IMG/VR virus record: IMGVR_UViG_3300045988_094428
Location: 1-64,000 of that record
DNA length: 64,000 bases
Strand: one strand, 5' to 3'
DNA from: a virus
Positions within the stretch are counted from its first letter, which is position 1. Every line of letters begins with the position of its first letter. Shown here piece by piece: positions 8,776-62,885 of this stretch. The notes under the pieces were generated by a model, which worked only from the letters and a program-made list of their open reading frames with translations, was not told the DNA's origin and did not search any database. Both the position numbers and the translations under genes were made by a program.

Positions 8776-9883
8776 GAAATGGTTGCCTGACCTTAAACAT
8801 ATCGTGAATTGCTGGAATATCCTTAGAGATTAACGTACCAACTATATGCGGTGACGTAATATAGGGCAGACAGGTTCTCTGATATGGTGAAAATCGTTAA
8901 TATTGGACAATCAGCAACCAAGCATCTAGCTTTGCTAGATGAAGGCTCAACGACTAAGTGCGATATAATATAAGTTAGATTAGAATTTATATAGAATGGA
9001 GGTGAAAATATGAGACATAAAAGTACATTAACAGAAAATGATAGCAATTTAGTAATTGAAATGTATAATAGTGGTATGTACCTAAAAGATATAGCCAGTT
9101 CTTTTCATTGCAGAGTGACTAAGATTACTGATATTTTACATGACGCTGGTATTAGAACAAACAATGAAGGGAAATATCTAAATCGGCTTGCAAATACAGC
9201 ATACTTTGACGTAATTGATAGCGAAGTAAAAGCGTATCTCCTTGGTTTTATAACCGCAGATGGTTCGGTTGGAGCAAGGACAGGGAGGAATTTTGGTAAA
9301 ACACTAAGGCTTGAACTTCAAGAGTCTGACGAGTCTATTTTGGATTTGCTCTCAAGCGAATTGAATATTAAAAGCAAGAAATATTATCACAATAAGAATG
9401 GGAAAATTACTGTTTCTGTTGGTATCAGTTCTACAGAGATAGTTGATTCTCTTGAAAAATACGGCGTGGTTGCTAATAAGACATACGTTCTCGAATCTTT
9501 ATTCATGGACTTACCAGATGATTTGTTGAGGGCATATTTACGTGGCCTTTTCGACGGTGATGGTAGTTTATATATTTCTAGCGGCATTGTTCATGGGAAC
9601 TTCACGGAAGGATTAGAGCATATCGTTGTGCAGTTCAGAGATATAATAAACTCCAAAATTGGCATCGAGAATACCACAAAGATTCAGTGCAATAATGGTG
9701 CATATCATGCTGTGTGGAATGGCTCTAATTGCGTAAAGCTATGTGAATATCTTTATAAGGACGCAAAATATTTCTTGCCGAGAAAATATGAATTTGCAAC
9801 TACAGCTATAAAGTCTAACTAATTCTAACTTATATTAAAGATATAGTCTGACCTTATTGGAAACAGTAAGATTAACAAAAATG
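8776..9883 (+). mobile_element. Putative group I intron (1108 nt) interrupting the phoH Walker A codon; carries a LAGLIDADG homing endonuclease ORF
   Basis: Exon 1 ends in U (8775), the element ends in G (9883). Joining 8775 to 9884 restores GTYGSG-KSFLSMQMGL, a canonical Walker A. The downstream ORF continues with PhoH motifs (ARGEGSAVGYLPGEFEQKV, VVDEAEDLTESQLRLVGTRLGQNSRIFFSGDYKQ). Confidence 0.5.
9010..9822 (+). CDS. LAGLIDADG homing endonuclease (intron-encoded)
   Basis: Two LAGLIDADG motifs (YLLGFITADGSV, LRGLFDGDGSL); own RBS GGAGGTGAAAAT-ATG. Confidence 0.7.
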   Translation: MRHKSTLTENDSNLVIEMYNSGMYLKDIASSFHCRVTKITDILHDAGIRTNNEGKYLNRLANTAYFDVIDSEVKAYLLGFITADGSVGARTGRNFGKTLRLELQESDESILDLLSSELNIKSKKYYHNKNGKITVSVGISSTEIVDSLEKYGVVANKTYVLESLFMDLPDDLLRAYLRGLFDGDGSLYISSGIVHGNFTEGLEHIVVQFRDIINSKIGIENTTKIQCNNGAYHAVWNGSNCVKLCEYLYKDAKYFLPRKYEFATTAIKSN

Positions 9884-11467: not shown

Positions 11468-12967
11468 ATGGCAAATTTTGCAAATGCAGTTCGTGAATCT
11501 GCACGAATGACCACTACCGCAAATGGAGCAAAGTGCTACAATACCACTGGTAGCAAGATGCTTGACCTGTTCTCTACCGCTGGCGGTATGCGCACTCGAA
11601 TCAATGATGTTCGTGATGCGTTCTCTGCGGCATGGAACGAGAATCCTGAGCTGGCAATTAAGCTGGCTTTCTATTGTCGTGACGTGAGAGGTGGACAGGG
11701 TGAACGTGACGTTGCACGTGAGATGCTTCGCTGGGTCGCAGAATATCATCCTTCCACTATGCGTAAGAATTTGAAGTTCTTGCCTGAGTATGGTCGTTGG
11801 GACGATATTTACGTCTTTGTTGGCACTAAGGTCGAGAATGACGTATGGCAGATGGTTCGTGAGCAGTTCACCGAGGACATCAAGAACGTCAATTCCGGTA
11901 AGTCCTGTTCTCTGATGGCTAAGTGGCTGAAGTCAGTCAATACTTCCTCTAAGAAGTCTGTCGAGTTTGGTCGGTTGACCGCTCGTAAGTTGGGACTGTC
12001 TTATATGCAGTACCAGAAGACTCTGGCAAAACTGCGTAAGTACATTAACGTGACCGAGGTTAATATGTCTGCAAACAAGTGGACTGATATTAACTACGAA
12101 GCTGTCCCTTCTAAGGCTATGACTAACTATCGTAGCGCATTCGCCCGTCACGACCACGAAGGATTTACCGACTATATCAACGCTGTTAAGGCCGGAGAAA
12201 AGACTATTAAATCTAACACTTTGTATCCTTATGACCTTGTACATCAGTACATGGGCGGCGGTGGAATGGTTTCTTATCGCTCCGGTTACTACAACTGCGG
12301 TGGTTTGGCAGATAAGGAAGATGCTGTTGTTGAAGCACAGTGGAAGGCATTGCCCAACTACATTGACGGAAACCATAACGTGATGGTTATGGCAGATACG
12401 TCTGGTTCTATGCGTGGTCAGCCCATCGAATCCGCTCTTGGCCTTGCAATGTATTTTGCAGAGCGTAATAGTGGCCCTTATAAGAATCTGTTTATGACCT
12501 TTAGCTCTCATCCTTGCTATGTCACTCTGGATGAACAGAGTATGCTCGGCAACTTGAAGAAGGCCGCAAAAGCTGACTGGATGGGTTCTACCAACCTTGA
12601 AGCTGCCTTTGCTAAGATTCTCAAGACTGCGACTGACAACCACCTGACTGATGACGAGTTGCCCAAGGCACTTGTTATCATCTCGGATATGCAGTTTAAT
12701 AAGGCGTTGATTCAGGGCGACAACTACTTCGACTCTATGAAGAATATGTATGCCGCACACGGTTATACCCTTCCTCATGTTGTGTTCTGGTGCGTAAATG
12801 CTTGGGCTGGTTCTACTCACCATAATAACTACAACGACTACGTTACTACGTTTAGCGGTAATGCCGCAAGCACTTTCCGTGATGTTCTCGGAACTATCGG
12901 TTATAATGCTTACGAGGCTATGTTGAAGGTTCTGAATGGTGAGCGTTACGCGCAGATTCATGCCTAA
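11468..12967 (+). CDS. vWA-domain protein with a ~300-aa N-terminal region that may be TROVE/DUF2828-like
   Basis: MIDAS motif VMVMADTSGSMRG in the C-terminal half. The N-terminal similarity to the TROVE module of Ro60-like proteins is tentative and recalled, not computed. Confidence 0.4.
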   Translation: MANFANAVRESARMTTTANGAKCYNTTGSKMLDLFSTAGGMRTRINDVRDAFSAAWNENPELAIKLAFYCRDVRGGQGERDVAREMLRWVAEYHPSTMRKNLKFLPEYGRWDDIYVFVGTKVENDVWQMVREQFTEDIKNVNSGKSCSLMAKWLKSVNTSSKKSVEFGRLTARKLGLSYMQYQKTLAKLRKYINVTEVNMSANKWTDINYEAVPSKAMTNYRSAFARHDHEGFTDYINAVKAGEKTIKSNTLYPYDLVHQYMGGGGMVSYRSGYYNCGGLADKEDAVVEAQWKALPNYIDGNHNVMVMADTSGSMRGQPIESALGLAMYFAERNSGPYKNLFMTFSSHPCYVTLDEQSMLGNLKKAAKADWMGSTNLEAAFAKILKTATDNHLTDDELPKALVIISDMQFNKALIQGDNYFDSMKNMYAAHGYTLPHVVFWCVNAWAGSTHHNNYNDYVTTFSGNAASTFRDVLGTIGYNAYEAMLKVLNGERYAQIHA

Positions 12968-15213: not shown

Positions 15214-16056
15214 TTGACCCATTCTATAAGGACGGGATATATTACAGAGGAAGGAGCGTATTTGACCGTGATGACACTTGATGACAGAATGAAAACTTAT
15301 TATGAGGGTGCATATCGTGTTTATCTGACACGGCGTATGCCTGTCATTATCCGAATCGACTCTCGTGCTGGGCACACCTTTACAAAGAATCTGAAAAAGC
15401 CCTTTGATGTAGTTTTCACTGCAACGATGCAGGATACAATGAAGTATCTGTGTGAAAACATTCAGGGTTGTGTAATTGGTTATACGCAGTCTGACGAGAT
15501 TACTTTGTGCCTTGTTGATTATGACAAGCTGGAAACCGATGCTTGGTTTGGTTATAATCTAAACAAACTGGTAAGCCTCAGTGCATCAATGGCTACGTTG
15601 GCATTTAATAAGTGCTTTGAACGTAATGCCAATAGAACCCTCACTAAGATGGCATTGTCCTCTGGCGTGAATAAGTTTGAAATTGACGCTTACTCTGCTA
15701 CATTGGCAAAGTGTAAAGAAAAGGGTTTGTGTTTCGATTCTCGCGCCTTTAATATCCCGAAGGAAGAGGTGTGCAACTGCTTCTTATGGAGACAGCTTGA
15801 CGCTTCTCGAAACAGTATTCAGGCGGTTGGTCAGGCTAATTTTTCGCATACCGTTCTGAATGGTAAGAATACTTCCGAGATTCAGGATATGTTGATGAAC
15901 GAGAAGGGTATCAACTGGAATAATCTTGCTACAGAATTGAAGCGTGGCTCTTGTTGTGTGCGAGATGAAGGTGGCTGGACTATCGACCATGAGATTCCTA
16001 AGTTCTCTGGCGATGGTCGTGATTACATCGACAAGCTGATTTATATCGGTGAATAA
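15214..16056 (+). CDS. Thg1-like protein (tRNA-His guanylyltransferase / 3'-5' polymerase family). True start probably ATG ~15274.
   Basis: VIIRIDSRAGHTFTK matches the Thg1 RIDGRxFhkF motif; GYTQSDEITLCL matches the Thg1 GQSDE motif. Confidence 0.6.
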   Translation: MTHSIRTGYITEEGAYLTVMTLDDRMKTYYEGAYRVYLTRRMPVIIRIDSRAGHTFTKNLKKPFDVVFTATMQDTMKYLCENIQGCVIGYTQSDEITLCLVDYDKLETDAWFGYNLNKLVSLSASMATLAFNKCFERNANRTLTKMALSSGVNKFEIDAYSATLAKCKEKGLCFDSRAFNIPKEEVCNCFLWRQLDASRNSIQAVGQANFSHTVLNGKNTSEIQDMLMNEKGINWNNLATELKRGSCCVRDEGGWTIDHEIPKFSGDGRDYIDKLIYIGE

Positions 16057-17137: not shown

Positions 17138-17212
17138 GCGGATATAGTTTAGATGGTTAGAACGCCACACCGAAATGTGGAGACGTGGGTTCGAGTCCCA
17201 CTTATAGTCGTG
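17138..17212 (+). ncRNA. tRNA-like element, probably a pseudo-tRNA
   Basis: Canonical D arm (GTTT-agatggtta-GAAC) and T arm (GTGGG-TTCGAGT-CCCAC). The anticodon stem CCACA/TGTGG encloses only 6 nt. The acceptor stem does not pair. Confidence 0.3.
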
Positions 17213-18818: not shown

Positions 18819-18935
18819 GGCTGTGTAGCTCAATAGGCTAGAGCGCGTAAAACCTATCTATTTTAGATAGTAACAGCTACACATTTTTCCATTATAAGGA
18901 CGAGGTTTATGGTTCGAGTCCATACGCAGCCACCA
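18819..18935 (+). ncRNA. 117-nt tRNA-like RNA 'B'. Same architecture as A, with a ~50-nt insert containing a CTATCTA-tttt-AGATAG hairpin.
   Basis: Acceptor GGCTGTG/CGCAGCC, D arm GCTC-aataggcta-GAGC, T arm TATGG-TTCGAGT-CCATA, CCA encoded. Confidence 0.4.
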
Positions 18936-19327: not shown

Positions 19328-19415
19328 GCCAGTGTAGTTCAGTTGGTAGAACGCGGGTTTTGTAATCCCGATGCCGAAAGGGTTCTCGCAGGTTCGAGTC
19401 CTGTCACTGGCTCCA
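19328..19415 (+). tRNA. Class II (long variable arm) tRNA with atypical anticodon region CGGGT-TTTGTAA-TCCCG (anticodon TGT by canonical numbering; contains GTA)
   Basis: Acceptor GCCAGTG/CACTGGC perfect, D arm GTTC/GAAC, 17-nt variable arm, T arm GCAGG-TTCGAGT-CCTGT, CCA. Anticodon stem has a U-U at its base, so the loop is effectively 9 nt. Confidence 0.45.
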
Positions 19416-19630: not shown

Positions 19631-19718
19631 GCGCTCGTAGCTAAGTTGGTATAGCACCGGACTTTTAATCCGGGGTGGATTATTCCTATCGTGGGTTCAA
19701 GTCCCACCGGGCGCACCA
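19631..19718 (+). tRNA. Class II-architecture tRNA with anticodon TTT (Lys-reading anticodon on a long-variable-arm scaffold), CCA encoded
   Basis: Acceptor GCGCTCG/CGGGCGC, D arm GCTA/TAGC, anticodon arm CCGGA-CTTTTAA-TCCGG (perfect), 17-nt variable arm with GGA/TCC stem, T arm GTGGG-TTCAAGT-CCCAC. Confidence 0.5.
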
Positions 19719-20247: not shown

Positions 20248-20249
20248 GT

Positions 20250-20540
20250 AAATGAGAATCAAAGCGGACTGGTAAAGGGATGCCTTTAGGAGCAGACCGA
20301 ACTGTTGTAATAGAGGTACACTATTACACTTTGCGGTGCTCTGATTAGTGGTTTTGATGCCAACAATGGTGTTCGCGCCACCCCATCATTTATCCTCAAG
20401 CTGGCTTGAGAAACGATACTCGGAAGGGTATCACGCCCCACCGTGGGAGAAAGCGGCAGTCCGGGTCGGGACTAGAGAATACGACCACGCGATATTTGGT
20501 GGATGGGAACGAGTGAGTACGATTCGTTCCCAATTTTTAT
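20250..20540 (+). ncRNA. Candidate structured non-coding RNA (~290 nt) ending in an intrinsic terminator
   Basis: Dense local hairpins (GTAATAG/CTATTAC, CAAGC/GCTTG, CCCAC/GTGGG, CCGGG/CCCGG), no credible ORF. Terminator GGGAACGA-...-TCGTTCCC + AATTTTTATT at 20505-20540. Confidence 0.3.
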
Positions 20541-20564
20541 TATTTATGAATAGGAGATGGTTGC

Positions 20565-21095
20565 ATGAAGAAACTGCTAGGAGCTATCATTGCTTTGCTT
20601 ACAACATTTGTGATAATTTGCGCTGTGGCAGTTCCGTCAAAAGCGGCAGATTTTAGTGACAAGTTTGAATTATATGAATCGTGGAATAACAATCTAAAAG
20701 TATATACAAGAGAAGTGAGTGAGGAACTTGATGTTCCGTATTCTGCGTTAGTTGCTATTATCTATCACGAGTCAAGATTTAAGAACGATGTTGGCACAAG
20801 CTATATTGGCCTAATGCAAGTTGGATGTACGTCAGATATTTTGAATTTTCTTTCAAATAATGGACTAAAAACATCTAAGAAAGGTTTGTATAACCCAGAG
20901 ACAAACATTAGAGCTGGTGCATTGATTCTTAGATACGCAATGGATAAAGCCACAAATATGGAAGATGCGTTCTATATTTATACTTGCGGCGAGGGTGCTG
21001 TAAAAAAGCGAAAGGCGAACGGTCAGAAGAAAAATAAAGCTACTATTGAAATTACAGAGCTTTATTACGAATATTCTGAATACTTTGCTGAATAG
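20565..21095 (+). CDS. Lytic transglycosylase (SLT domain) with signal peptide. The TAG at 21093-21095 is followed by 60 stop-free, protein-like codons to TGA 21276-21278, so a read-through product 20565-21278 is possible.
   Basis: IIYHESRFKNDVGTSYIGLMQV (catalytic E-S, GLMQ motif); N-terminal hydrophobic leader. Extension GKSDYRQFLLDELNGVQSELDETNGLLQ... is coiled-coil-like. Confidence 0.55.
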   Translation: MKKLLGAIIALLTTFVIICAVAVPSKAADFSDKFELYESWNNNLKVYTREVSEELDVPYSALVAIIYHESRFKNDVGTSYIGLMQVGCTSDILNFLSNNGLKTSKKGLYNPETNIRAGALILRYAMDKATNMEDAFYIYTCGEGAVKKRKANGQKKNKATIEITELYYEYSEYFAE

Positions 21096-21293
21096 GGTAA
21101 ATCTGATTATCGACAGTTCCTATTAGATGAACTAAATGGGGTTCAGTCAGAACTCGACGAGACGAACGGTTTGCTTCAGTCTTGTGAAGTGTATCAGTCC
21201 GACTATTACAACCAGCAGTTGTTGTTTATAGAGCAAAAGATAGACTTCATAAATTCTGAATTAAAAAATTTAGAATGACCTCTTGACTTCTTG

Positions 21294-21347
21294 AATCCGG
21301 GATGGTATACTACTACTAGGTAGTAATCATCCCGGATTTTTCTTTAA
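21294..21347 (+). terminator. Hairpin terminator overlapping a promoter-like TTGACT/TATACT pair
   Basis: ATCCGGGATG...CATCCCGGAT followed by TTTTTC. Confidence 0.5.
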
Positions 21348-21365: not shown

Positions 21366-21394
21366 TTGACTTTGGCCGGTTTCTATGCTATAAT
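21366..21394 (+). promoter_or_regulatory. sigma70-like promoter
   Basis: ccaaaaccccTTGACTttggccggtttctaTGcTATAAT. Confidence 0.6.
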
Positions 21395-21816: not shown

Positions 21817-22506
21817 ATGAGATATTTAGGTGGCAAGAGCAGAATCGCAAAAGATATTTCTGATTATATCAATTCAGTGATAGGAAATCGTGATTTTATC
21901 CGGTAACTGCCTTCCGGCCTGAACATCTCGCCACATGGCGATTAGATATGGATGCGCGTCATTAAGAATTTTGCGATTCGCATTGACACGCGACTCAATA
22001 GAACAGCTCCCGCAAAACAAAGATATAAAATCACGAAGTCAACATACGATTACGTGAAAGCGCACAAAGATGAAGACCCCGGATTGACTGGATATGTTGG
22101 TTTTGCGTGTAGTTATTCTGGTAAGTGGTTTGGCGGTCTTGCAAGAAATAAGCGCGGCGAAGATTTTTGTGCTGGTGCAAGTCACAGTATTTATCGTGAC
22201 CTAAACGGTTTAAAGAATGCAGAGTTCTTGTGTGGTGATTATCGAGATGTATCAATCCCGAATGGTTCGGTCGTGTATTTAGACCCACCATATAAAGGAA
22301 CTACTGGATATTCTACTGGTGATTTTGACCATGAAGCGTTTTGGGAGTATGTCAGAGAGCTTTCAAAAAGGTGCACTGTCCTTGTAAGCGAAGAGACTGC
22401 TCCTAATGATTTTGCTTGTGTTTGGTCTAAGCAGATTGCAAGACAGGTAGATGTGCGGCAAGGTCGAGTCTACAAAACTGAAAAATTATTTTCAAAAACC
22501 ACTTGA
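21817..22506 (+). pseudogene. Dam-like N6-adenine DNA methyltransferase, disrupted: N-terminal MRYLGGKSRIAKDI... stops at TAA 21904, motif-I region replaced by a short segment with TAA and TAG; C-terminal DPPY core intact
   Basis: Paralogous to the intact MTase at 38648-39403 (MKYMGSKARIAKDI..., FDIPY). VYLDPPYKG present. FxGG motif I cannot be found in any frame between 21904 and 21952. Confidence 0.4.
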
Positions 22507-28075: not shown

Positions 28076-29734
28076 ATGGCAAATTATACAATTTACCATC
28101 TTCATACCATGCTAAGTAATGCAGTAACAAATATCGACTCAGTTACTACGTTTAAGCAATACATAAAAAGAGCACAAGAGTGCGGTATGACCGCACTTGC
28201 TTTTTCAGAGCATGGTAATATTTTTGAATGGGTTCACAAGAAAGACGCTGTTGAAGCCGCTGGTTTGAAATATATTCATGCAATGGAGGCATATCTTACA
28301 GAGCGCATTCCAGATGAGGGCGAAGAAAAAATTCGTGATAACTACCACTGTGTTTTGATTGCCAAAAACTGGGAGGGTGTTAAGGAACTTAACCGTTTAC
28401 AAGGAAAGGCATTCAATAGAACAGACGGTCATTACTACTACGCACCGAGAATTACATTTGCTGAATTATTTGCTACAAGTAATAATATCATTATTACCAC
28501 AGCTTGTGTTGCATCTGCATTATGCAAAGGAACAGAAAGCGCGAAGGCGTCATATCTTAGATTTCTGACGAGACATAAAGATAGATGCTTCTTGGAAGTT
28601 CAGCATCATAATACGCAAAAGCAGTTTGAGTATAATAGATATTTGGCAAATCTGTCTAAGGAAACTGGTCTTAGATTGATTGCTGGTACTGATACGCATT
28701 GTTTAAACGCAGAGCATGAACTTGGTCGTAGCGCACTACAGCGTGGCAAGGGCGTTTTTTTCGATGATGAAGTCGGTTGGGATTTGACATGGAAAACCTA
28801 CGATGAACTTGTCGAGGCATATAGAACGCAAGATGCTCTCAGTGAAGAAGAATATATGTCTGCAATCAATAACACAAATGTTATGGCAGATATGATTGAA
28901 ACCTTTGAACTTGATAGAAGTTTCAAGTACGCAAAGATTTACGATGATGGTGAAAAAGTCCTCCGTGAAAAGTTGTTTGCGCCAGAAACTATCGAGCCGA
29001 TTATCAAGGAGGGATTTTCAAGAGAAGAAGTAACTGCGCGTTTGGAGCAGGAAATTGACACTTTTAAGGCTTTGAACGCAACTGACTTTATTCTTCTCGA
29101 AGACCATATTGTGCGTTGGGAGCATTCGCATGATATGTGGCAAGGCCCTGCGCGTGGAAGCGCCGCTAGTTCCTTGGCTTTGTACGCTTTGGGCGTGACA
29201 GAAGTGAACCCATTGAAATATGGATTTTATTTCTGGCGATTCATGGATAAATCTAAGTACAGCTTGGCTGATGTTGATATGGATAACTCGGCAAAAGACC
29301 GTGATAAACTGAAGTTCTGGATGTTGAACGACCACCTAGACCTTCCGAATGTCAAGACTTGTGAAATTATTACGTTCAACACAATCGCATTAAAGGGCGC
29401 AATTCGTGATATTGGACGTGGATTGGATATGCCTCTCGATGAGGTTGATACGATTGCAAAAGCTGTTCATGAAGTAGCAGTCGATGAAGAAAAGATTGTT
29501 ACTATTGATGATAGCTGGCGTAAGAAATATCCAGAGTTGTTCAAGTACGTTGATATTGTTATTGGCACTATCGTTAGCATCGGTTCTCATCCGTCTGGTG
29601 TTGTTGTTTCCGACCATGACATTGAATCGGAATTTGGCCTGTGCTATCTAAAAGATGACCCCTATCCTGTCTCCTGCATCAATATGAAGGAACTTGATTC
29701 CCTTAATTTTACCAAACAGGATGCCCTTGGGTAA
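28076..29734 (+). CDS. dnaE: DNA polymerase III alpha (DnaE-like), N-terminal portion (PHP domain through the finger region); reading frame leaves the polymerase around 29711-29734
   Basis: PHP-domain start YHLHTMLSNAV...ALAFSEHGNIFEW. C-terminal end ...CINMKELDSLNF aligns to the DnaE LLKMDF box. Confidence 0.6.
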   Translation: MANYTIYHLHTMLSNAVTNIDSVTTFKQYIKRAQECGMTALAFSEHGNIFEWVHKKDAVEAAGLKYIHAMEAYLTERIPDEGEEKIRDNYHCVLIAKNWEGVKELNRLQGKAFNRTDGHYYYAPRITFAELFATSNNIIITTACVASALCKGTESAKASYLRFLTRHKDRCFLEVQHHNTQKQFEYNRYLANLSKETGLRLIAGTDTHCLNAEHELGRSALQRGKGVFFDDEVGWDLTWKTYDELVEAYRTQDALSEEEYMSAINNTNVMADMIETFELDRSFKYAKIYDDGEKVLREKLFAPETIEPIIKEGFSREEVTARLEQEIDTFKALNATDFILLEDHIVRWEHSHDMWQGPARGSAASSLALYALGVTEVNPLKYGFYFWRFMDKSKYSLADVDMDNSAKDRDKLKFWMLNDHLDLPNVKTCEIITFNTIALKGAIRDIGRGLDMPLDEVDTIAKAVHEVAVDEEKIVTIDDSWRKKYPELFKYVDIVIGTIVSIGSHPSGVVVSDHDIESEFGLCYLKDDPYPVSCINMKELDSLNFTKQDALG

Positions 29735-31088
29735 ACAATCCTGCCCAAGTAAAAGCGAGTTATATGCTGGGAAGTGCTTAGAGCCTCAGTTACCAAAGTG
29801 TGACAATACTGAGGATTGCACAATCAGCAGGCACGATAAGTTCTGCCTCAACGACTATGGGAATATCCCAACTGTCATAGAGTGATTTATGACAGTAACC
29901 TCGCTGAAATGATATAGTCTGGTCTGCATTTAATAGTGCAGAGTCAAGCAGAAATGACTTGACATTTTGTTTGCTTTCTGATATAATATATGTAAAGGTG
30001 GTGATTGTATGGCGAAAGCAAGATATACGAAAGTGTAGTTCTATAATGAAATACTCCGGTTGTATAAAGAGTATGGCGAGATAAACCAAAATATCTACGC
30101 AAAACACACAAGTCTTGATGTTAGCTTTAGACAGTATTGTAATAAGTACGGTGGATTAAAGCAGATATGTAAAGACCTTGGAATAGAGTATAGCTATTAT
30201 AATGAAGTTTCCAAAGAGCAAGCGCTTGAACGTGGGCGAATGTTGCTAGAGCAATATGGATTCTTGCGAAAGGAACTTTGTCAAAAGAACGGAATATCAT
30301 CTAGTACAGTTGCGAAACTGTTTGGAAGTTATCAAAACTTTTATAAGGAAGTTGGATATAACACAGACTTTCGTAGAGATGTTCCAGTTGAAGCTGTAAG
30401 AAAAGATATACTCGAATTTATAACCGAAACTGGTTCTAAGTCAATTACAGACTACAAGAAAGCGCATCGGTATTCACAATCTATAATTGATAGATGTGGT
30501 GGGTGGCATACAATTCTTGTTGATATTGGAGTAGAACCAAAGAAATGGCGTAATGGTAAAGACAATATAATCAAACAGACACGTGAATTGATAAACAAAT
30601 ATGGTTATCTGTCAAGTAAACTAATAGAAGATAATTGCGATTTTACTTTGCAAGCGTTGGAGTATTACTTAGGAAACGCTGATAGTATTTGCAAATATTT
30701 CGGTAATGAGCATTTATTTGACTACGGCAGAAGTAGTCAAGAACTCAGAATAGCAGAGTTACTCGAAGATATTCTAGGTGTCGGGAATTTTTCACGTGAA
30801 GTTGCATGGGATTGGTTGTTGTCAGACAGCGGCAATCATCTGTATGTGGACTTTTATATTGATTCTTTAAAAGTTGCGATAGAATATGACGGTGAGCAAC
30901 ACTACAAATACGTTGAAAGGTTTCATAGAAATTATGATGGGTTTCTTGAATATCAGCGTAGAGATAATATAAAGAGTTCGTTGCTTGCAGAACATAACAT
31001 CAAACTTATTAGAATATCATATACGCAAGAAATATCAGAAAAATATCTAAGAGATATATTAAGCAAACAAAATTAACAAAATTACGTG
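29711..31088 (+). mobile_element. ~1.35-kb intervening sequence splitting dnaE (putative group I intron, boundaries approximate), carrying an endonuclease ORF and an internal promoter
   Basis: The DnaE alignment resumes in the next ORF (xDNVGIINE... vs TLTIINW...; AIMQEPQMAFVQEFCGYDFLRADKLRKIIGKK vs the DnaE YQEQVMQIA...GADLLRRAMGKK). Internal promoter gactTGACAttttgtttgctttctgaTATAAT at 29959-29988. Confidence 0.4.
30060..31076 (+). CDS. Endonuclease with C-terminal DUF559/Vsr-like PD-(D/E)XK domain, encoded inside the dnaE intervening sequence
   Basis: VDFYIDSLKVAIEYDGEQHY...RDNIKSSLLAEHNIKLIRI matches the Vsr-like restriction-endonuclease fold common in free-standing and intron-encoded HEGs. 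Confidence 0.5.
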   Translation: MYKEYGEINQNIYAKHTSLDVSFRQYCNKYGGLKQICKDLGIEYSYYNEVSKEQALERGRMLLEQYGFLRKELCQKNGISSSTVAKLFGSYQNFYKEVGYNTDFRRDVPVEAVRKDILEFITETGSKSITDYKKAHRYSQSIIDRCGGWHTILVDIGVEPKKWRNGKDNIIKQTRELINKYGYLSSKLIEDNCDFTLQALEYYLGNADSICKYFGNEHLFDYGRSSQELRIAELLEDILGVGNFSREVAWDWLLSDSGNHLYVDFYIDSLKVAIEYDGEQHYKYVERFHRNYDGFLEYQRRDNIKSSLLAEHNIKLIRISYTQEISEKYLRDILSKQN

Positions 31089-32621
31089 GATAACGTGGGT
31101 ATTATCAATGAAACTTGTAAATTAGCTGGCATCGAGAGATTGTCACCTAAGACGATTGACTTTGAGGATGATGCAGTTTGGAATAGTATCAAGGAAGATA
31201 CATCTTTGATTTTTCAGATGAACTCCAACTATGGTCAGCGCACAGTTGATAAGATGTTGTCACCAGAGGTTTACAGCAAGATTAAGAAGCAGATTCCTAA
31301 TATGACACGTTTGGATTTGCTGACGTTCATCAATGCTCTTATTCGTCCTTGCGGCAAGGGAGTTTATGATGATGCGACGAACGGCATCGTATCTAAAACA
31401 GGAATCAGAGAGATTGATGATTTGCTTGGTTCTTCTATGGGCTATGCAATTATGCAGGAACCTCAGATGGCTTTTGTTCAGGAGTTCTGTGGTTATGATT
31501 TCTTGAGAGCTGATAAACTTCGTAAGATTATCGGCAAGAAACTTGGTACACGTGACCAGCTTCCTATTATTAAGGAAGGTTGGGAAAAGAACGCAAAGGT
31601 CAAATATCATTTAACCGATGAGCAGTCTGACAAGATTATCAATCCGTTCTTACAGTGTATTCTCGATGCTACACGATATTCATTCTCGCTGGTTCATAGT
31701 TTGAGCTATTCTTGCATCAGCTATGAATGTGCATATCTGCGTTATCATTATCCGTTACAGTATTTGACTTCTTGCCTTAACGCATGGAACGGTGACGATA
31801 ACAAGACAGCAGAAGCTATTGAATACGCAAATAGTCGCAAGGTAAAGATTCTTGCGCCTAAGTTCAGACACGCAAAGGCAGAATATTTCTATGACCTTTC
31901 TACAAACAGTATTTATAAAGGTACGAGTAGTATCAAGGGATTAAATGCAGGGTATTCTGATTTCTTGTATTCTTTGAAGGATAATTCTTACAAGACATTT
32001 ACAGACCTACTGTACGATATTCAGGCATCTGGTATGCCTCGTGACCAAGTTGAAACTTTGATTAAACTTGACTACTTTGAGGAGTTTGGCACTTGCAGAG
32101 AGTTGGCAACAATCTTTAAGCAGTTCCAGTTCTTTAAGAAGGGCGAAGCGAAAACGATTGCTAAGAGCAAGATTCCAGACGAGATTACAATGAGCATTAT
32201 TAAACGCAATGCTAACGAAACCGAAAAGCAGTTTAATAAGCTGAATTGCCATAATATCTTAAATGAGATTGAACAGTACATTATGACAATGAATCTTGGT
32301 GATGTTGACATTAAAACCAAGATTGCTAATCAGCTTGAGTATATGGGTTACATTGGCATTAAGACTGACAAACCCGAAGATAGACCTAAAATTGTCATTC
32401 TTGAAATGAAGGTTATGAAACAGCGTGAATCTGTTGAGCCTTGGGGCGTTATCATTGATGCGCAGTCTATCGGTTCTGGTAAGCGCAGTTCTTATACAGT
32501 TCCTTATAAACTGTATAAACAGTGTAAGTTCAACAAGAATGATGTAATTAAGATTCGTGATTGGTATAAGAACAAACGTGGTTATTTCTATATTACTGAT
32601 TACGAGTTCGTGTTTATGTAA
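31086..32621 (+). CDS. dnaE: DnaE-like polymerase, C-terminal portion (palm/fingers to C-terminus)
   Basis: MQEPQMAFVQEFCGYDFLRADKLRKIIGKK and downstream segments align to Pol III alpha. Confidence 0.6.
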   Translation: MDNVGIINETCKLAGIERLSPKTIDFEDDAVWNSIKEDTSLIFQMNSNYGQRTVDKMLSPEVYSKIKKQIPNMTRLDLLTFINALIRPCGKGVYDDATNGIVSKTGIREIDDLLGSSMGYAIMQEPQMAFVQEFCGYDFLRADKLRKIIGKKLGTRDQLPIIKEGWEKNAKVKYHLTDEQSDKIINPFLQCILDATRYSFSLVHSLSYSCISYECAYLRYHYPLQYLTSCLNAWNGDDNKTAEAIEYANSRKVKILAPKFRHAKAEYFYDLSTNSIYKGTSSIKGLNAGYSDFLYSLKDNSYKTFTDLLYDIQASGMPRDQVETLIKLDYFEEFGTCRELATIFKQFQFFKKGEAKTIAKSKIPDEITMSIIKRNANETEKQFNKLNCHNILNEIEQYIMTMNLGDVDIKTKIANQLEYMGYIGIKTDKPEDRPKIVILEMKVMKQRESVEPWGVIIDAQSIGSGKRSSYTVPYKLYKQCKFNKNDVIKIRDWYKNKRGYFYITDYEFVFM

Positions 32622-36374: not shown

Positions 36375-37974
36375 TATAGGTAGTAAATTTTAGGAGGTTT
36401 GACATGAAACTAACAGAGTGTCAGGCCAGCACAGACTATACGAAATACTGGCTATCACCATACACCAATTCACAATATCCAGATTTTAAGACACCTTATC
36501 TAAAGATAAAAGAGGATTCAGCGAAGGATGTAAAAGTCGATGATATTGTTTATTGGGTAGAAAGAAGTCCTAGCGCAGCGATTGAGAGAAAAATATCTGT
36601 GCAGTGTGGGATTATCGTAGACGTATATCCAGACTGTTATGTTGCTAATCATCTTGCAGTTGCCGAATATATCACGTTCAGACTATATGACGAAAAGACG
36701 GAAAAGTTGTTTACAGATACCGCATCTTGGCGTGAGTATTTTCAGAATGTATCTTGGAGAAAATATCCGTCTAAAAAGGAACTGTCCGACAGTAGACATC
36801 TGTTTACTTTCAATCGGAAACCGCTGTATGAACTTATTGGTGGTAAACCTCCGAATTTGAAAGATATTGATGCTATCAAGGCGGCGTACAAATCTGGTAT
36901 TATTTGTAAGAGAAATGATGTAGTCGGATATGCGTCTTGCCCATATAGTGAGATTGATAAGGGCAGTTGGAAGCCGATTTTGAAGAGTGATTACGAGTCT
37001 GACAACACAACTCTTTCTAAGAGTCTTACATTCGCAACGTATGACGATGCAGTAAGATTAAAAGACTGTATTGAGCATGAATATGACTGGGTTTCTGGTT
37101 TAACCGATGAACAGTACACGCTTCTTGAAATGGACAAGGCTTTAAATAAACTTGTCCGTGACGGTATGTTGGAATCTGATGCGCGTAGAATTGCCTACTT
37201 TATGTTAAAGCAAAAGAAGTTAGTAGATATTGAGTTTCGCACTCTTCACGGCAAATTCCAATGGAGGAGCTACGACAATAAAAAGTGGAACAATGTAAAT
37301 CCTGAGAATATCCCACTTATCGAAGATGAGGTGTAGTTATGACCCATGTAACCGATGCTGAACGCTATCTGGCAGAATTAAAAAGTGCAATGGATTACTA
37401 CGGTAATATGCTCGATAAGCAGCATGGCAGTAACCATGACGCATACGTTAAGTATGATGTTGCACGATGTCAGTATAACGCCGCAAAAAGAATGATGGAA
37501 CTTATGAAGAGGTAAAATATGATTGTAGAGAAGAGTTTTATTGATGCTATCAAGTATGCGAAGAAGAACAGCGTTATGATTCGGCCAGAATATTGGAGTC
37601 TTTGGATTCAGTATGTTAAGTCCAATGGTGGGTTTTTCTGGTGCGACAAGAGTGGTAGAATTACTGAAGACCATGGCCTCGATAAGAGCGTAGTGGTCTG
37701 TGATAAGATTCTCGATGTTACCAGATGGGAATTTATGTGTGATGAGCTTGTTGACGATGCGGAGGGCAGCAATGACGGAAACCGAGTATAATCAGCTTGT
37801 TTTAGATTTGGCAAACGAATCGGAAGATACGCTGTATTTTATGTTTAGAAATTCTATTCGTCAGGTTAGATTCACAAGCCCTTACGAAAATGATTATCGG
37901 TACGTTGTTGCGCGACACAACGCAATTTGTGAGGCGTTTAAGAAAAAGACTGGACATAACATTTTGGAGGACTT

Positions 37975-43227: not shown

Positions 43228-45185
43228 TTAGTTCTTGCGTATTTTGGGTCTACACAATTTTTGGTTTTTCACCGGCTGTTATCGCGTTCCTCGCGTCAAA
43301 ACCTTCGAAGTGGTACGGAGTCGCATTTATTGTCTGGTTTATTCTATTGCTGATTAGAGTATCGCCTACCGGGTCACAGATTCCTCAGTATAGAGCCTTT
43401 TGTAAATATAGATTGCATTGCCCTAATGAACTTCTCCCTAAGATGAAGTATGCACAGATTAAACAGTTGTTATCTGTCAAAGAACTTCGTGCAGATTTTG
43501 ACTATGTTAGCTGTAATTACTATGAAGATAGATTTGTGTACGATGATTATTATGACTGGTCTTGTAAAGATATGAGACATAATTTTGTAATTTGTCATAT
43601 TGCTAGTAAAAACAATAACTATGTCGTTTTAAACCCAGCGACATATTTTGATTACTTCGCAATGTGCTTGACTGTTAGTAAGGGTTTGAAAAGTCTGTGT
43701 GCAACAGAAACGGTCGATGCACAGTTAAAAAATCTAAGAGATATTAGGGAAGTTGTACGCGAAGTGCAGGATAGAGAAGTAGCAAAGATGCAAAATATTG
43801 CATCAGAAAATCTTGAAATCGAGAATCGTATTATTGGCGATAGAAAGGTTAAGATAAAACAAAAATGAGTTACGATATTGTTGTCACAAAGGTAAATGAG
43901 CTTTTGGAAAAGTTTGTTGGTGGCGAGATTTTCTTTGACCAGCTTGACGATTCTATCAGAGCGAGTAAAGAGATTCTTGCAATGCTTGACCACGATGTTA
44001 AGATAATGTATCCGCACGACAAATATAAGTATGTTGTTACCGGTAAAACCGGAATTGCATATTTCAATTATGGTTTTACTACAGACCTGATTGTTCCGGG
44101 CGGCTTGCGTAAATCTAACACAAAGTTAGACCTTTCCGAATATGTAAAGTCCGGTGAGAATTACGTACTTATTGATGATTCTTACTTTATGGGGCGCACA
44201 GAGGCAGTTATTCGGAAAGCACTCAATGAGTGCAGTGCTAATTTAGCCGGAACACTCGTTTTCTATGATGGTTGTATCGAGAAGCGTTCTTGGGTCACTT
44301 CTATGTATCGTTACTACGATAATTATGACGTTCTTGGGAACAGATTGGAGAAATAGTTATGAAGATTAAGGTTGAATTTACTGTCGAAAATAGCATGGAC
44401 GCGGCGCAGATTGACGAGAATCTGCAAAAGGCTATTGCCGCTGGGGTTACTGAAACGACTGTCGCAGGACAGATTCGTGATGAGTTTAAGCAAATGCTCA
44501 TGGGACAGATGTGGGGCAACGATATTAACGGTAAACCTGTTGTTGCAGATATTGTCGGTGTTGAGGTATTTGCAAATTCTAATGATACTTCCGTATTTTC
44601 TGAATGGCACAAGGAGGATTAAATGGGCGAGTGGTATATTGTTCGTGGTAATATGGATGATGGCTGTCGTAAGTACACCACAAAAGTTATCGTGTATGCC
44701 GAGACTGTAAACGAAGCAAAGTCTAAGGCAAAAAAGCATTTGGAGACTGATGCAGATTGCCTGTTTACTCCTGCTGACGTAAGCCGCCTTGATAAGAATA
44801 AGGTATACTAATTATGGAAGATTTTGATATTAGCAAAATCACTATGAGTAAGGTGCATCTTGATGAATATAAGGTAAATCCATATTCAGAAGAACTTACT
44901 TATACGCTCGTCAATGGTGATGGTGATGATATGGGCGGCAGTAGAGTATTGCGCTTTACCGATGATGGCACATGGTCATTATGTAATAAGGACGCGGCTA
45001 TCGTCCGTAACCATGTCTTTTTAGAGCCTTGGAATGGTGATAGGATTCTTAGTGCTATTTTTTACGATGAGCATATCGCCGCAGTAAAGATTCACGATGG
45101 CTGGATTCCTCTTAGTGAATGGGGCAATTCGTGCGTCTGCTTCAGAATGGGTGTTGAATACGCCAAAAACAACTAATAGTTGTAA

Positions 45186-57308: not shown

Positions 57309-57944
57309 TTATCTAACAAACATTGCTTTCCAAGTGTTCATACCGACGATTCCATCAGCAGTTAAACCGTGTGCTTTCTGGAACTCTTTTACCTTGTTTT
57401 CAGTATTCTTTCCGAATTGACCGTCAATAGGTAAACCGAGTTTCTTTTGAACAAACTTTACAGCAGACGTCTTGCCTACATTTGTTCCACGTTTAATTAT
57501 TGGCATTAAATCAGTTCTATAATATTCGTAACGTCCAGCTTGCGCACATAGCCAGAAAGTTCTATTCTGTCTAGTGTCTACATGAACAAAGTTGGTGTTA
57601 CCATAGTAGTAAACACCAACACCGTTAATAATAGTCTGAGCAAAATAAGCAATCTCAACTGCTGATACACCAGAAATCTGAATATCAGCGGCCATACCTT
57701 TTACGTGATATGAGCCGGAAGTACCGCCGACCCTACGATTATGCTCTGGTGTACGATATGCAGAATTTATTATAACTGGTTTGCCAAAATGGTCACGAAT
57801 TTTTTGTAAAACTTCAACAAGAGTCAAATCAATAAGAACGGAATCAGAGCCATCCTTACAAGCGAACTCTTTTACAGTAAAGTTTGTAGACAATTTGACA
57901 TTACCTTGATTTTTTACACTATAAGTTTTAACCATAATTATCAC
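57309..57944 (-). CDS. Endolysin: peptidase M15 (L-Ala-D-Glu/D-Ala-D-Ala peptidase-like) with C-terminal PG_binding_1 domain
   Basis: SAYRTPEHNRRVGGTSGSYHVKGMAADIQ (zinc peptidase M15 H..D/H motif) and C-terminal VKFVQKKLGLPIDGQFGKNTENKVKEFQKAHGLTADGIVG peptidoglycan-binding repeat. Confidence 0.75.
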   Translation of the reverse strand: MIIMVKTYSVKNQGNVKLSTNFTVKEFACKDGSDSVLIDLTLVEVLQKIRDHFGKPVIINSAYRTPEHNRRVGGTSGSYHVKGMAADIQISGVSAVEIAYFAQTIINGVGVYYYGNTNFVHVDTRQNRTFWLCAQAGRYEYYRTDLMPIIKRGTNVGKTSAVKFVQKKLGLPIDGQFGKNTENKVKEFQKAHGLTADGIVGMNTWKAMFVR

Positions 57945-58052: not shown

Positions 58053-60512
58053 TTAATAATTAAATTCTCTGTCTAAGCCTGCACCAAAACGAATGATATT
58101 TATTTTTTTTGATATTGGTCTTATTACAACAACATCCCACGCTTGTTCTGTTGCATCACCTTCTGTTCTTGACGGAGAAACAAGTCCATAAGTTGTATCA
58201 TAACCAGTAATAGCTCTGATTGAATCAGAATTAACATCTGTTTGTTCAAATTTTCCACACGTTGAAGCAATAGATAACCATGGTTCTGTAAAAGCATAGT
58301 CGCAATGACTATGACCGAATAACTGAATAAATTTACCACCACTTGAAATGAACGTAGAAATAGCATTGTTAATTGCTTCAGACCTTGCTTCTGACGGAAT
58401 CTTGTTGCTAAAATTCTGATTCTTTTGTGTAGACATATGCTCACAAAGAACCACAGTCTTATCTGTGTTCAGCGCTGTATCTATAAACCATGTCTTTGTA
58501 TCTTCTGAGATTACATAAGCATTCAAATAATTTGTATTGATAAATACTACCCTTATGTTCAACTCTTTATAATCAACATAGAAATCAGTTCCATTAGTGG
58601 CTTTGTTTACGATTGCATTTTTAGGGGTCGCAGACATAAATGCTCTGTAAGTCTGCCCTATATCGAATTTAGGACTTGGGTCATAATTCGTATCATGGTT
58701 CCCAACAGCAAACAAGTACGGGATTCCGATACTGTTGAAAGCTGATAACATATAGTCTGCTTGTGATAAAGATGTTTCAATATTACTACTTCCATTTATG
58801 TTATCACCAAGATTTGCAATGAAATCGCAATGAATTTTCTTAGCAAAATACTTTATATTTTTAATGGTTTCGTCAAAATTCTGAAATACTATTGAAGTAG
58901 GTGCATAATGAATATCTGTGATTTTCGGAAACACAAGACAAGGCTCTGTCATGCAATTTCTAACAGAAGCGATAGTTTCGTTCATTTCCGAAACAAATTT
59001 TTCTGATAAATCGTTTTCCAGCTTAGTTATTCTTTTTTCGTGGTCTGACAGCACGGAATCATATACCTTAACTGTTATGCCAAGTTCTTCAAGTGTGATA
59101 GTCGAAGATGTATCTGTTTTTGAGCAAGCGATGCAAATATAAGAATCTACAGATGGAATCCAATCCATAGGTTCTGTTTCCCATCCACCCCGCAAAACAT
59201 TCGTGTACTTTCCATCAGCAAGTGTCCATGCACTTCTTGCAAACTGTTGCCCTAAAATAGTTTCAATATGAACCTTTGTATTTGCTTTTATGAATAGCAA
59301 TTCTGAAAAAGATATTCTTGTCGTTGAACTAACTTTAATTGGTTTTGCTCCACCGGTTTGTCTTGACCATGATACTCTTGCCCAATCTGTAAAAAGCCTC
59401 GACCCATCTTCAAGAAGCATTTTTAACACATCTACATCGTTTCTTAGCGCAGATGTTTTTTCTACAGTGTCAGCAACAGTACCTTGTAAATGCGCATCCT
59501 TTGCCCAATTTGCTGAAATCTTTCTGTTACTATTTACATTAAGTGCAACATAATAACAATCTCTCTTGTTGTTAGTAACTGTTCTTTTATTACCATATGT
59601 TGAATCAAGTGCAAAGTAGTCGATGTATTTTTTGTCTGCATCATATAGTTGGTATTGGTTAGTCGGAAGTGCTTCGCCATCATCTGAATAGATAGTAAAT
59701 ATAGTTCCTTTTGGAATCTCAAATGGTACAAGCTCCGTGCTATTAATTGTACTTTTGTAAAATCCAACAATACCAGAAATTTTAGTTATATCTTCTTTTA
59801 GCTGACTTTCCGCATCGGTAGCTCTATCAATTTCACCCTACAAGTCCTTTCTAATAGAAGTAACTTTAGACGATTCTGCTTTACCAGCCAATTTATCTCC
59901 GACAGTTTTTGCATCAGCGGCATAACCAGAAATTGTAAGTGTTGTGTCTGTCTTTAACGATGCGGCACTTTTAGCGGCAGCATCAGCAGCCGCTTGAGCC
60001 GCTTTTGATGCTGCAAGTGTATCATTATAATATTTGGCAGCGATAGCATTAAAACTATCAATAGCTGCTTGAAGTGCATTTTCATCTTCGATAGGTTCGC
60101 CAGTATCAAGTAATCCTTCCTCAACCTAAAAAGTAGCTGGTTTTGTATGAAGAATATATTGTGATACGTTAGTCATATCATTTGTATCATATATTGATAC
60201 GTCATAAGTTACAGTGCCTTTAGCACTTGTGACATTAGAATCAAGAACCCAGTCGAACAGAACGAATTGCTCGTTACCTTCTGTAATAACCTCTCTGCTA
60301 TTACAGAAAAACTGGTCATAACGATTCAGAGAATTGACATATCTGACAGTAAGAATCTTATCGGTAATATCAATACCATCAATCACTGATGGAATCTTAA
60401 AGGTAATATATCTTGAATCATTATCATTTACAACAGCCAATTCTTCTGTCGCGCTTGGAACGATTGTTCTATTTACAATTTCAAAAATATAAGTTCCGTT
60501 CAAGCTATTCAA
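58053..60512 (-). CDS. Tail-fibre-like protein (~819 codons) with a C-terminal metallophosphoesterase domain, containing two in-frame TAG codons (plus 60126-60128 and 59838-59840)
   Basis: A single continuous frame. ...HTKPATF-TAG-VEEGLLDTGEPIEDENALQAAIDSFNAIAAKYYNDTLAASKAAQAAADAAAK... and ...SIRKDL-TAG-GEIDRATDAESQLKEDI... The downstream segments have no start codon of their own. C-terminal calcineurin-like motifs GDNINGSS and FAVGNHDTNYD. RBS AGGAGG + TTG start at 60512. Confidence 0.6.
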
Positions 60513-61002
60513 CCTCCTAAATTAAAAATAAGGGTGTAGCATTAAGCTACACCCAACTTATTAAATGTACTTATCGTCAGTAATATACTCGTACTCTTCT
60601 GGAGTAATCCAGCCCTTTTTGGTTACATTATAGACCATCTTTTTAGTCCAGAAACCAGAATCGTAGTAATACTCAGCTTTCTTTCCGTGTGCGGACAGTT
60701 CCATATCGTCCATATATTGTACTTCCATATCTTCCATATCTTCCATACCGCCCATACTAGCGGTTTTCTCTTCTTCGACAGGTAGTTCAATATCACTCAT
60801 AACAGCAATATACTCAATCAAAGATTGTTGATTGCTAATCTGAGCATTGCGATGTTCGACCATCTTCTCCTCGTGAGGATTCATAATCGCCTTTTGAAAA
60901 ATCATAATTCTACCTCCATAAATCATTGTAGAATTTATTCATTCGCTATATCAATCTATATGAGTTGCCATGCTCCGCATGAGCAACCCAACAGCTATAG
61001 CA

Positions 61003-61956
61003 CTAATCTATTTTTTCTTTGGTTCTACGACCTTTTACAACAAGTTTAACCATTTTACGTAATTTACGCTTTTCATTCTTAACATTATCTCCAAGGATTG
61101 ACATAACGACCTTGCCGGTTTCGGTAAGTCTGAACTTAAATCCCAAGAATGGAATACCCTTACCAACTCTATAGAGTTTAGTTTTCTTAGGATGCAATTC
61201 AAGACCAATTTTAGCTAGTTCTTCTTGAATCTCGTGCATACACTTGATTAAGTAATTTCTATCGTGATGAATAAGAATAAAGTCATCCATATAACGAATA
61301 TAATACTTAATGTGCATACGTTCTTTAATCTTATGGTCAAGTTTATCCAGAACAGAAATGCCAGCAATCTGAACAACTTGGCTACCGGGATTATACCCGG
61401 TATCACCAAGATATTGTTCATTTAATATTCTACAGACTCTATCTGCATATTCTACTGGTAATTTCTCTCTGAACAAGGCATTTGTTGTATCATGCCGCAT
61501 ATTATCATAATAGTGCTTAATGTCGCATTGCAGAACCCAAGCATCAAGACCGTTCTTTCTGTAGCATCTTTGCAGATGACATTTTAAACGGCCTCTAGCG
61601 AAATCAGTTCCTTTACCCTTTTGACAAGCACAATTATCATAAATAAAACTTCGAGTCATTAACGGATACACTAAATTATCATTAAGACTGCGTTGATATA
61701 CCCTGTCTCTGAAAGCTATGCTCACAGCAATTCTTTCTTTCGGATGAGTGATATGAACAGTCTTAGTTGGACGTGGTTGGTATGTTCCGTTTGCAAGTTG
61801 TTCTTCTAGTTTAAGAACCTATTCAATTCCATGAATATAGAAATTAGCGACAGATTCTTTCCAGCTAACATTTTTCTTGCACTTATATAAAGAATCAAGT
61901 AGGTGCTCGAAGTCTAGGACATTTACTACTTGATTCGATTCCTAATTATTATTCAT
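61003..61956 (-). CDS. Diversity-generating-retroelement reverse transcriptase with two in-frame TAG codons (plus 61942-61944 and 61819-61821)
   Basis: MNNN-TAG-ESNQVVNVLDFEHLLDSLYKCKKN...YIHGIE-TAG-VLKLEEQLANGTYQPRPTKTVHITHPKERIAVSIAFRDRVYQRSL...CACQKGKGTDFA...VLQCDIKHYYDNMRHD...GSQVVQIAGISVL...YIRYMDDFILI. All RT motifs 1-7 present, including YMDD and the DGR-type SQ motif. Frame verified across both TAGs. Confidence 0.8.
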
Positions 61957-62150
61957 TAAACTTTGACACAACAACTAAACTAAGCCGTATATAGGCGTAC
62001 TGGCTCGAAAACCAACGCCATCGGCATAGAGTGGTTTAGTTATCTTTTATAATCTTCCAAGCAAGATAACAGGGTTATAACCTCCTTGTGTTTGAAGTCG
62101 AGAACCTAGCTTGCGCTATACGTAAGATTTTTTATTAGGGACTTTCAAAT

Positions 62151-62270
62151 ACAATCGGGCGAGAACCTATTCGAGTTGCTCGCGTTGTTGTTGTTGACGT
62201 TACCGCTAGAGTTGACATTCCACGTATTATTAGCATTGCCACGATTAGCAGACCGCAAGCGCACATTCTG
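62151..62270 (-). repeat. DGR template repeat (TR)
   Basis: 120-nt near-identical copy of the 3' end of the target gene; differs from VR at 15 positions, all adenines in TR on the coding (minus) strand. Confidence 0.85.
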
Positions 62271-62301
62271 AATCAGGTTATAACCCAAATATATATAAAA
62301 A

Positions 62302-62745: not shown

Positions 62746-62885
62746 TGTGCGGCCTCCTTAATTTAATTTTTATATATTTGCTTTTATTGTTAATATTCGG
62801 ACAACAGTATTTCTCTAAGGAAATTACTGCTTTTAATCTAAATAGAAAATCTTGCACGAAAAGTATTCGTGCAAGATTACTAGGA

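Follow-up and report, generated by a model that had tools for sequence, protein, structure and literature searches.

A phage gene for a lytic transglycosylase (SLT), which under the standard code ends at a TAG after 176 codons, is best read as one 237-codon gene whose codon 177, a TAG predicted to lie in the middle of a helix, would be decoded as glutamine. This reading extends beyond a single gene. Comparison with relatives indicates that TAG encodes Gln (genetic code 15) throughout the lineage, with recoded codons almost all in the late structural and lysis module, an interpretation to which we assign a probability of roughly 0.85. The window, that is, the whole stretch of 64,000 nucleotides analysed here, belongs to a lineage of gut phages of ~100–115 kb; the content of its late module past 64 kb is deduced from these relatives.

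The SLT gene and its 60-codon extension

The standard-code SLT open reading frame (20565–21095) starts at ATG 20565 and is closed by TAG 21093–21095 after 176 codons. Past this TAG the frame reads GKSDYRQFLLDELNGVQSELDETNGLLQSCEVYQSDYYNQQLLFIEQKIDFINSELKNLE, 60 codons, up to TGA 21276–21278 (Table 1), an arrangement that the initial annotation had described correctly. The full-length product of 237 aa would comprise a signal peptide, the SLT domain and a C-terminal helical hairpin. The N-terminus resembles a Sec-type signal peptide with cleavage between MKKLLGAIIALLTTFVIICAVAVPSKA and AD, which suggests that the protein is exported. The Pfam SLT profile (PF01464) matched residues 50–160 with an E-value of 1.3e-13 and 51 bits (cutoff 21.3), spanning profile positions 5–115 of 117. 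This domain carries a catalytic E69-S70 motif, with H68-E69-S70 unchanged in 18 homologues, and lies entirely upstream of TAG177.

Table 1. Positions in the window of the SLT gene, its flanking elements and two late-module genes with in-frame TAGs
Feature	Position (strand)	Basis or remark
Intrinsic terminator	20504..20532 (+)	11-bp stem and T run; closes the upstream tRNA/non-coding RNA unit
Shine-Dalgarno AGGAGA of SLT gene	20552..20557 (+)	read in the sequence, 8 nt before the ATG; kept in all relatives
SLT gene, codons 1–176	20565..21092 (+)	predicted signal peptide, SLT domain, start of long helix
In-frame TAG, codon 177, putatively read as glutamine	21093..21095 (+)	invariant in 10 assemblies; Gln in standard-code homologue P0011
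C-terminal helical hairpin (the extension), codons 178–237	21096..21275 (+)	homologues, dN/dS, codon usage
Predicted true SLT stop	21276..21278 (+)	TGA in the window, TAA in most relatives
Strong sigma-70-like promoter, TTGACT-17-TATACT, extended -10	21283..21311 (+)	begins 5 nt past the true SLT stop
Second sigma-70-like promoter	21366–21394 (+)	
Tail-fibre-like gene, metallophosphatase C-terminal domain	58053..60512 (-)	~820 aa only with TAGs 60126–60128 and 59838–59840 decoded
Reverse-transcriptase gene region	60817..62046 (-), approximate bounds	240-aa standard-code ORF 61003–61725, extended on both sides via TAGs

The neighbours of the SLT gene are a tRNA array and replication genes; the tail genes and the canonical endolysin lie far away. 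The canonical endolysin (57309–57944; Peptidase_M15 plus PG_binding) contains zero TAG codons. Only ~30 nt separate the upstream terminator, whose stem is preserved by a compensatory change in L007 and L008, from the SLT start, and no sigma-70-like promoter was found between the two. Downstream, the promoter sequence CTTGACTTC is kept in all relatives and delimits the SLT unit at its 3' end. A GC-rich non-coding stretch of ~290 nt (20248–20540) separates tRNA-Cys from the SLT gene and shows 94% identity among relatives, exceeding that of synonymous sites in adjacent genes. It adopts a multi-helix fold with four covarying pairs and the intrinsic terminator at its end, has no Rfam family match, and is probably an undescribed phage small RNA.

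The initial annotation had considered an open run of 60 codons unlikely by chance in DNA of ~37% GC. Measured GC is 38.9% for the window and ~42% locally. At the composition of the window the probability of a stop is 0.071 per codon, which gives a probability of 0.012 per stop for at least 60 open codons, and shuffled sequence yielded the same value. With ~84 ORFs in the window, about one such run would arise by chance; the open run is therefore not significant by itself, and a few other post-stop open runs of 41–95 codons are present. Codon usage was more informative: the log-likelihood ratio of 21096–21275 in frame was +0.21 per codon, which fits a coding frame, since true coding windows scored 0.36 +/- 0.14 and out-of-frame ones -0.58. 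The sole in-frame start that the window offers before the last 19 codons of the extension is TTG 21171 (35-aa ORF). All relatives have TTA at that codon, so the extension lacks a separate start.

Three kinds of relatives were recovered when the fused protein of 237 aa served as query. Proteins of 176 aa were 94–97% identical, one cluster of them holding 243 member sequences; two proteins of 237 aa (P0001 and P0002) were 91% identical to the SLT protein of the window; and P0006–P0011, of 236–244 aa and 54–65% identity, carried the extension inside one uninterrupted polypeptide. For P0011 (54% identity) we checked the DNA, which contains an uninterrupted 243-codon ORF under the standard code with a true Gln codon at the position of TAG177, in the same neighbourhood as in the window (113-aa ORF, D12 methyltransferase, AAA_24 and SSB). 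P0001 and P0002 are the database proteins of L007 and L008. They show Q at codons 205 and 218, whereas their own DNA, with TAG at 177, 205 and 218, fails to translate into them under the standard code.

At the DNA level we compared ten independent assemblies (the window, L001–L008 and L035) that represent three deep lineages. TAG177, frame, length and end point were retained in all ten with zero indels in the extension, and the end point abuts the conserved promoter. Conservation in related phages, which the initial annotation had proposed as a check, was seen in 10/10 assemblies. Relative to L001, L002 and L004, the extension of the window displayed 20–24 synonymous and 11–12 non-synonymous differences, with dS of 1.0–1.7 (near saturation), dN of 0.08–0.09 and dN/dS of 0.05–0.08, similar to the 0.04–0.05 of the SLT domain; between L001 and L004 there were 8 synonymous differences and 0 non-synonymous ones. 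These substitution patterns indicate that the extension is under strong purifying selection. On the grounds of conservation and codon usage, rather than open-run length, we conclude that the 60 codons are genuine coding sequence, reached only through decoding of TAG177.

Within the extension, codons 205 and 218 are CAG in eight genomes, the window among them, and additional TAGs in L007 and L008. No TAA or TGA was present inside the extension in any of the ten genomes. TAG177 itself is invariant, but so are 2 of the 8 other Gln codons; invariance is on that account uninformative, and we rejected it as a sign of a regulatory role. The next codon is GGT in the window, not GGG as first annotated, and GGG, GGA or AAC in relatives. 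We found no conserved stimulatory RNA structure 3' of TAG177, the consensus fold reaching only -10 kcal/mol over 106 nt with no adjoining hairpin.

An AlphaFold model of P0001 (mean pLDDT 85) places position 177 within an uninterrupted helix (158–206, pLDDT >90), onto which a second helix (209–236) packs back as an antiparallel hairpin. The best PDB matches of the modelled catalytic part were MltE, MltC, Slt and MltF, with weak E-values (>=0.009) that were nonetheless consistent. A goose-lysozyme-like fold in the model and the catalytic E-S motif are both present, in agreement with assignment to the SLT family.

Among GenBank phages, blastn with the SLT region returned zero matches, and the best tblastn match, MT835481, was 36% identical in the SLT protein. 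Exact look-ups with the first and last proteins of the window returned no record. The single match among genome contigs, a 3.9-kb contig binned in a Bacteroidales MAG, was too short to be trusted for host assignment.

TAG and glutamine in the late module

The effect of reading TAG as sense differed between regions of the genome. In the late-module portion of the window (56.9–64 kb), coverage by long ORFs rose from 0.64 under the standard code to 0.89, and in the late module of a relative (L012) from 0.69 to 0.90. Coverage of the early and middle genes (1–56.9 kb) went from 0.70 to 0.75, a gain no greater than those obtained there with TGA or TAA as sense. Of the plus-strand genes in the first 57 kb, only the SLT gene has good support as recoded.

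Late ORFs of relatives carry 1–12 in-frame TAGs each. Of 118 informative TAG sites in these ORFs, 82 (69.5%) align to Gln, versus a background of 4.4%; the remaining ~30% align to non-Gln residues, none of which exceeds 6% (Y, 2/118). In one relative, an ORF of 2061 codons contains 12 TAGs, while its orthologues have two each, elsewhere in the sequence. Twelve TAGs in one ORF rule out low-efficiency leakage as a general mechanism. Recoding is light, with TAG making up ~6% of Gln codons in late ORFs. At the level of these alignments TAG is interchangeable with CAG and CAA in the lineage, and from the alignment statistics we infer that the residue at TAG is Gln. Because in-frame TAGs in many genes align to Gln, the pattern points to a lineage-wide reassignment rather than gene-specific read-through.

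Two late genes in the window illustrate this pattern. At both TAG sites of the tail-fibre-like gene, 28 homologues (637–1016 aa) are continuous; the first site holds Q, E, Y or K, the second Q, and homologues P0030 and P0034 translate under the standard code. The reverse-transcriptase gene contains in-frame TAGs at 61819–61821 on the N-terminal side and at 61003–61005 and 60946–60948 on the C-terminal side. Its RVT_1 match starts at profile position 17, the TAGs of the region align to Q in relatives, and the reverse transcriptase of one relative is an intact protein of 355 aa. Code 15 predicts the peptides ...KPATFQVEEGLLDTGEPIEDENALQ... and ...DLQGEIDR across the tail-fibre TAG sites, and the junction peptide ATIEITELYYEYSEYFAEQGK across TAG177 of the SLT gene.

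As a terminator, TAG is the rarest of the three codons in the window (TAA 55, TGA 22 and TAG 7 among 84 ORF ends), and ends at TAGs that are not internal are followed closely by TAA, TGA or a short extension. The plus-strand genes at 36404–37336 and 43865–44356 both finish TAG-TTA-TGA, with a back-up stop two codons on. Nowhere in the window is TAG needed as a terminator.

Several other features of the window were recorded. The N-terminal ~245 aa of the tail fibre (58053–60512, compared with P0026–P0053) show 84–94% identity across relatives, and the C-terminal domain is swapped, being a metallophosphatase in the window and a sialidase-like BNR, SGNH lipase or pectinesterase domain elsewhere. 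Judged from these sequences, receptor-binding or enzymatic domains are exchanged at the C-terminus as a modular cassette. On the minus strand, immediately 5' of the tail fibre, the reverse transcriptase (RVT_1) adjoins a DUF6273 protein (60817–63998), and the arrangement looks like a candidate diversity-generating retroelement. A D12/Dam-like methyltransferase gene (21817–22506) contains a 125-bp segment (~21900–22024) that is inverted relative to L001, L002 and L007 and bordered by a perfect 12-bp inverted repeat (TCGTGATTTTAT / ATAAAATCACGA). Those three relatives encode an intact methyltransferase of 229 aa, and the window, L003 and L005 have the disrupting orientation (29 aa + 184 aa); the segment looks like an intragenic invertible, phase-variable switch. 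DNA polymerase III alpha is a single gene of 1052–1063 aa in relatives; in the window (28076–32621) it is divided among three ORFs (552, 338 and 511 aa). That the first of them ends in TAA, not TAG, suggests an inserted element such as an intron, intein or homing endonuclease. Sub-threshold matches to group I introns (43 and 42 bits; gathering score 50) at 8730–9001 and 9702–9870 flank an ORF at 9010–9822.

tRNA genes and the search for a TAG decoder

We searched the window and 35 loci for a tRNA with a CUA anticodon using ARAGORN, the Rfam tRNA model (also at permissive thresholds) and a custom scan for CUA anticodon stem-loops. The window's 15 tRNA or tRNA-like genes included none, and none was present in the second array, of nine tRNAs, with which the late module of relatives opens (Met, Asn, Gln-UUG, Pro, Asp, Ala, Leu, Ser, Ser), or in the other sampled stretches of relatives' contigs. 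For IMGVR 088999, the search covered ~1–56 kb and 102–113 kb, the middle being represented only by the window and by the SLT and tail-fibre loci of other relatives. Suppressor tRNAs were detected in just 40% of the genomes with TAG recoding, and not in 60%, in a published survey (Borges et al., bioRxiv 10.1101/2021.08.26.457843), so the missing CUA tRNA does not disqualify recoding.

Four candidates were rejected. Relaxed thresholds gave a tRNA-Pyl(cta) call inside the endolysin gene, which was sub-threshold with a poor stem, and a tRNA-Stop(tta) call with poor structure. At 17138–17209 the tRNA-like gene combines a mismatched acceptor stem with an anticodon loop of 6 nt (CCGAAA), and the loops of its orthologues are Tyr-like or degenerate, namely CTGAAA, TTGTAGA (GUA, Tyr), CTACAAA or CTATAAA. 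The last, at 18819–18935, scores 44.6 bits against the Rfam tRNA model; its acceptor, D and T arms are canonical and its CCA end is encoded. An insertion of 40 nt that does not vary among relatives breaks the 5' strand of its anticodon stem; without the insert the arm is perfect (CGUCC-AUUAUAA-GGACG), with an anticodon of UAU (Ile), not CUA, in a loop that varies among relatives.

Other components of the tRNA complement are also unusual. The tRNA-Thr(UGU) (19328–19415) and tRNA-Lys(UUU) (19631–19718) genes are 88 nt each, with insertions of 13–15 nt in the variable region; tRNA-Lys(UUU) orthologues in relatives are of normal length. The phage encodes a Thg1-like 3'-5' nucleotidyltransferase (15214–16056) and a CCA-adding enzyme (51569–53035), and with these two enzymes 5'-end repair or editing of tRNAs is conceivable. 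It also encodes a Ro60-like RNA-binding protein (11468–12967; DUF2828/DUF7788, phrog_850). The second tRNA array of relatives includes a candidate YrlA-like Y RNA (L021, 7861–7961) with a permuted tRNA-like module, at 41.7 bits, below the gathering score of 69.

Alternative readings, decoding model and known systems

The initial annotation had proposed a suppression-dependent long form of the SLT protein and had likened it to programmed read-through. The first proposal holds in that the extension is coding and reached only via decoding of TAG; the dependence is not specific to this gene, since TAG-to-Gln reassignment appears to be lineage-wide. The second fits poorly, as the context of the TAG is not conserved, no conserved 3' structure was found and many genes have in-frame TAGs. 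We accordingly hold it improbable that host near-cognate tRNAs leak through TAG177 alone to yield a 176-aa SLT as the main product and a 237-aa isoform as a minor one, despite the invariance of TAG177 in ten genomes, the complete catalytic domain ahead of it, the failure to find a suppressor tRNA in the window and sampled relatives, and a possible near-cognate reader, tRNA-Gln(UUG), that relatives encode at the head of the late module. A variable next codon (GGT, GGG, GGA or AAC) and the lack of a conserved stimulatory hairpin are at odds with such leakage. L007 and L008 would require three successive events within 42 codons, and essential late genes with 2–12 TAGs would be inexpressible at a few percent per site. 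Furthermore, TAG positions drift among close relatives, as expected of a synonymous Gln codon, and the model sets position 177 in a helix, not a linker. A residue other than glutamine, such as pyrrolysine or tyrosine, is very improbable. Some anaerobes use UAG for pyrrolysine, the tRNA array contains a degenerate tRNA-Tyr-like gene, and an unfiltered tally placed Y at 11/266 sites; yet Gln accounts for 69.5% of informative late TAG sites over a 4.4% background and Y for 2/118, CAG/TAG exchange is seen directly within the SLT gene, the sole tRNA-Pyl call is the poor one inside the endolysin gene, and no pyl genes occur among the Pfam matches examined.

Two further readings would deny the extension its place in the SLT protein. 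That an ancestral protein of 237 aa lost its end to a nonsense mutation, with 180 nt left as an untranslated, decaying relic, needs one C-to-T change (CAG to TAG), and an open run of 60 codons (P ~0.012, ~1 expected per window) could survive by chance. We consider it barely credible given a dS of 1.0–1.7 against a dN of 0.08–0.09, zero indels and a fixed end point across ten genomes in three deep lineages, and TAGs at Gln positions as the sole new 'stops'. Equally hard to sustain is a separate small gene, in which re-initiation after the TAG would translate all or part of the 60 codons. The in-frame TTG 21171 of the window could open such a gene; it is TTA in all relatives and has no Shine-Dalgarno sequence ahead of it, whereas other genes of the window have strong ribosome-binding sites. 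Homologues encode the segment fused to the SLT domain, and a single modelled helix spans the junction.

Decoding of TAG as Gln throughout the lineage suggests the following model. With host standard decoding only, ribosomes would stop at TAG177 and release a 176-aa product with the whole catalytic domain; with efficient decoding of TAG as Gln, presumably late in infection, the full 237-aa protein would be made. Two isoforms, of 176 aa under the host code and 237 aa once TAG is decoded, are thus a possibility. Efficient decoding must occur, because without it neither the tail fibre nor the other late genes with several TAGs would be made. The decoder may be a phage tRNA of a non-canonical kind, or a host factor, or else some element that the sampling missed. 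A more elaborate scheme, which we regard as improbable, would dispense with a canonical CUA suppressor: efficient decoding of TAG would depend on interference with RF1, on a modified tRNA-Gln or on a tRNA-like RNA from the unusual arrays, processed or edited, and TAG177 would act as a timer, with truncated exported SLT early and the full-length, hairpin-bearing enzyme only late. That a cell-wall hydrolase is the single recoded gene outside the late module would fit the published proposal that recoding delays lysis-related functions.

Under standard-code annotation most late genes of this phage group, as well as the SLT, tail-fibre and reverse-transcriptase genes, are truncated or split; the genomes should be called with table 15. 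Many 176-aa 'SLT' entries in databases would be the first three-quarters of a 237-aa protein. A tRNA-rich gut phage lineage of ~100–115 kb with no close GenBank relative would join the TAG-recoded phages, in keeping with the published proposal that late and lysis functions are gated by recoding.

The Q-beta coat/A1 and retroviral gag-pol systems employ low-efficiency read-through of a single gene, based on local context or structure and host near-cognate tRNAs. As in those systems, the C-terminal extension of the SLT protein is reached solely via stop decoding, and a short and a long product are possible in principle. Unlike in those systems, recoding reaches many genes, the context of the SLT TAG lacks conservation, and genes with several TAGs call for efficient decoding. 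As an enzyme, the SLT protein resembles family 1 lytic transglycosylases (E. coli MltE, MltC and Slt70) in its SLT domain with a Glu-Ser motif and matching fold, and signal-peptide-bearing phage lysins in its predicted N-terminal signal peptide. Its C-terminal helical hairpin of ~80 residues is without counterpart in the PDB matches.

TAG-to-Gln recoding (code 15) has been described in gut phages (bioRxiv 10.1101/2021.08.26.457843; PMC9523058) and validated in phages via metaproteomics (Peters et al. 2022, PMC9523058). Recoding in the published phages is concentrated in late and lysis genes, and the Borges preprint compared TAG with CAG/CAA for the Garnet and Topaz protein families (10.1101/2021.08.26.457843). 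phAss-1 has three suppressor tRNAs (PMC10607447), unlike the window and sampled relatives, where no CUA tRNA was found. In common with code-15 gut phages (the crAss-like, Lak, Garnet, Amethyst, Jade and Sapphire clades), the lineage of the window has in-frame TAGs at Gln-aligned positions, a recoded late structural and lysis module beside replication genes in the standard code, low GC with TAG as the rarest stop, and a cell-wall-degrading gene among its recoded genes; in both, code 11 callers split genes. Unlike those clades, it forms a separate lineage of ~100–115 kb, syntenic with contigs from human-gut and other metagenomes, that combines DNA polymerase III alpha, ~24 tRNAs, a Ro-like protein and a reverse transcriptase with light recoding, at ~6% of late Gln codons.
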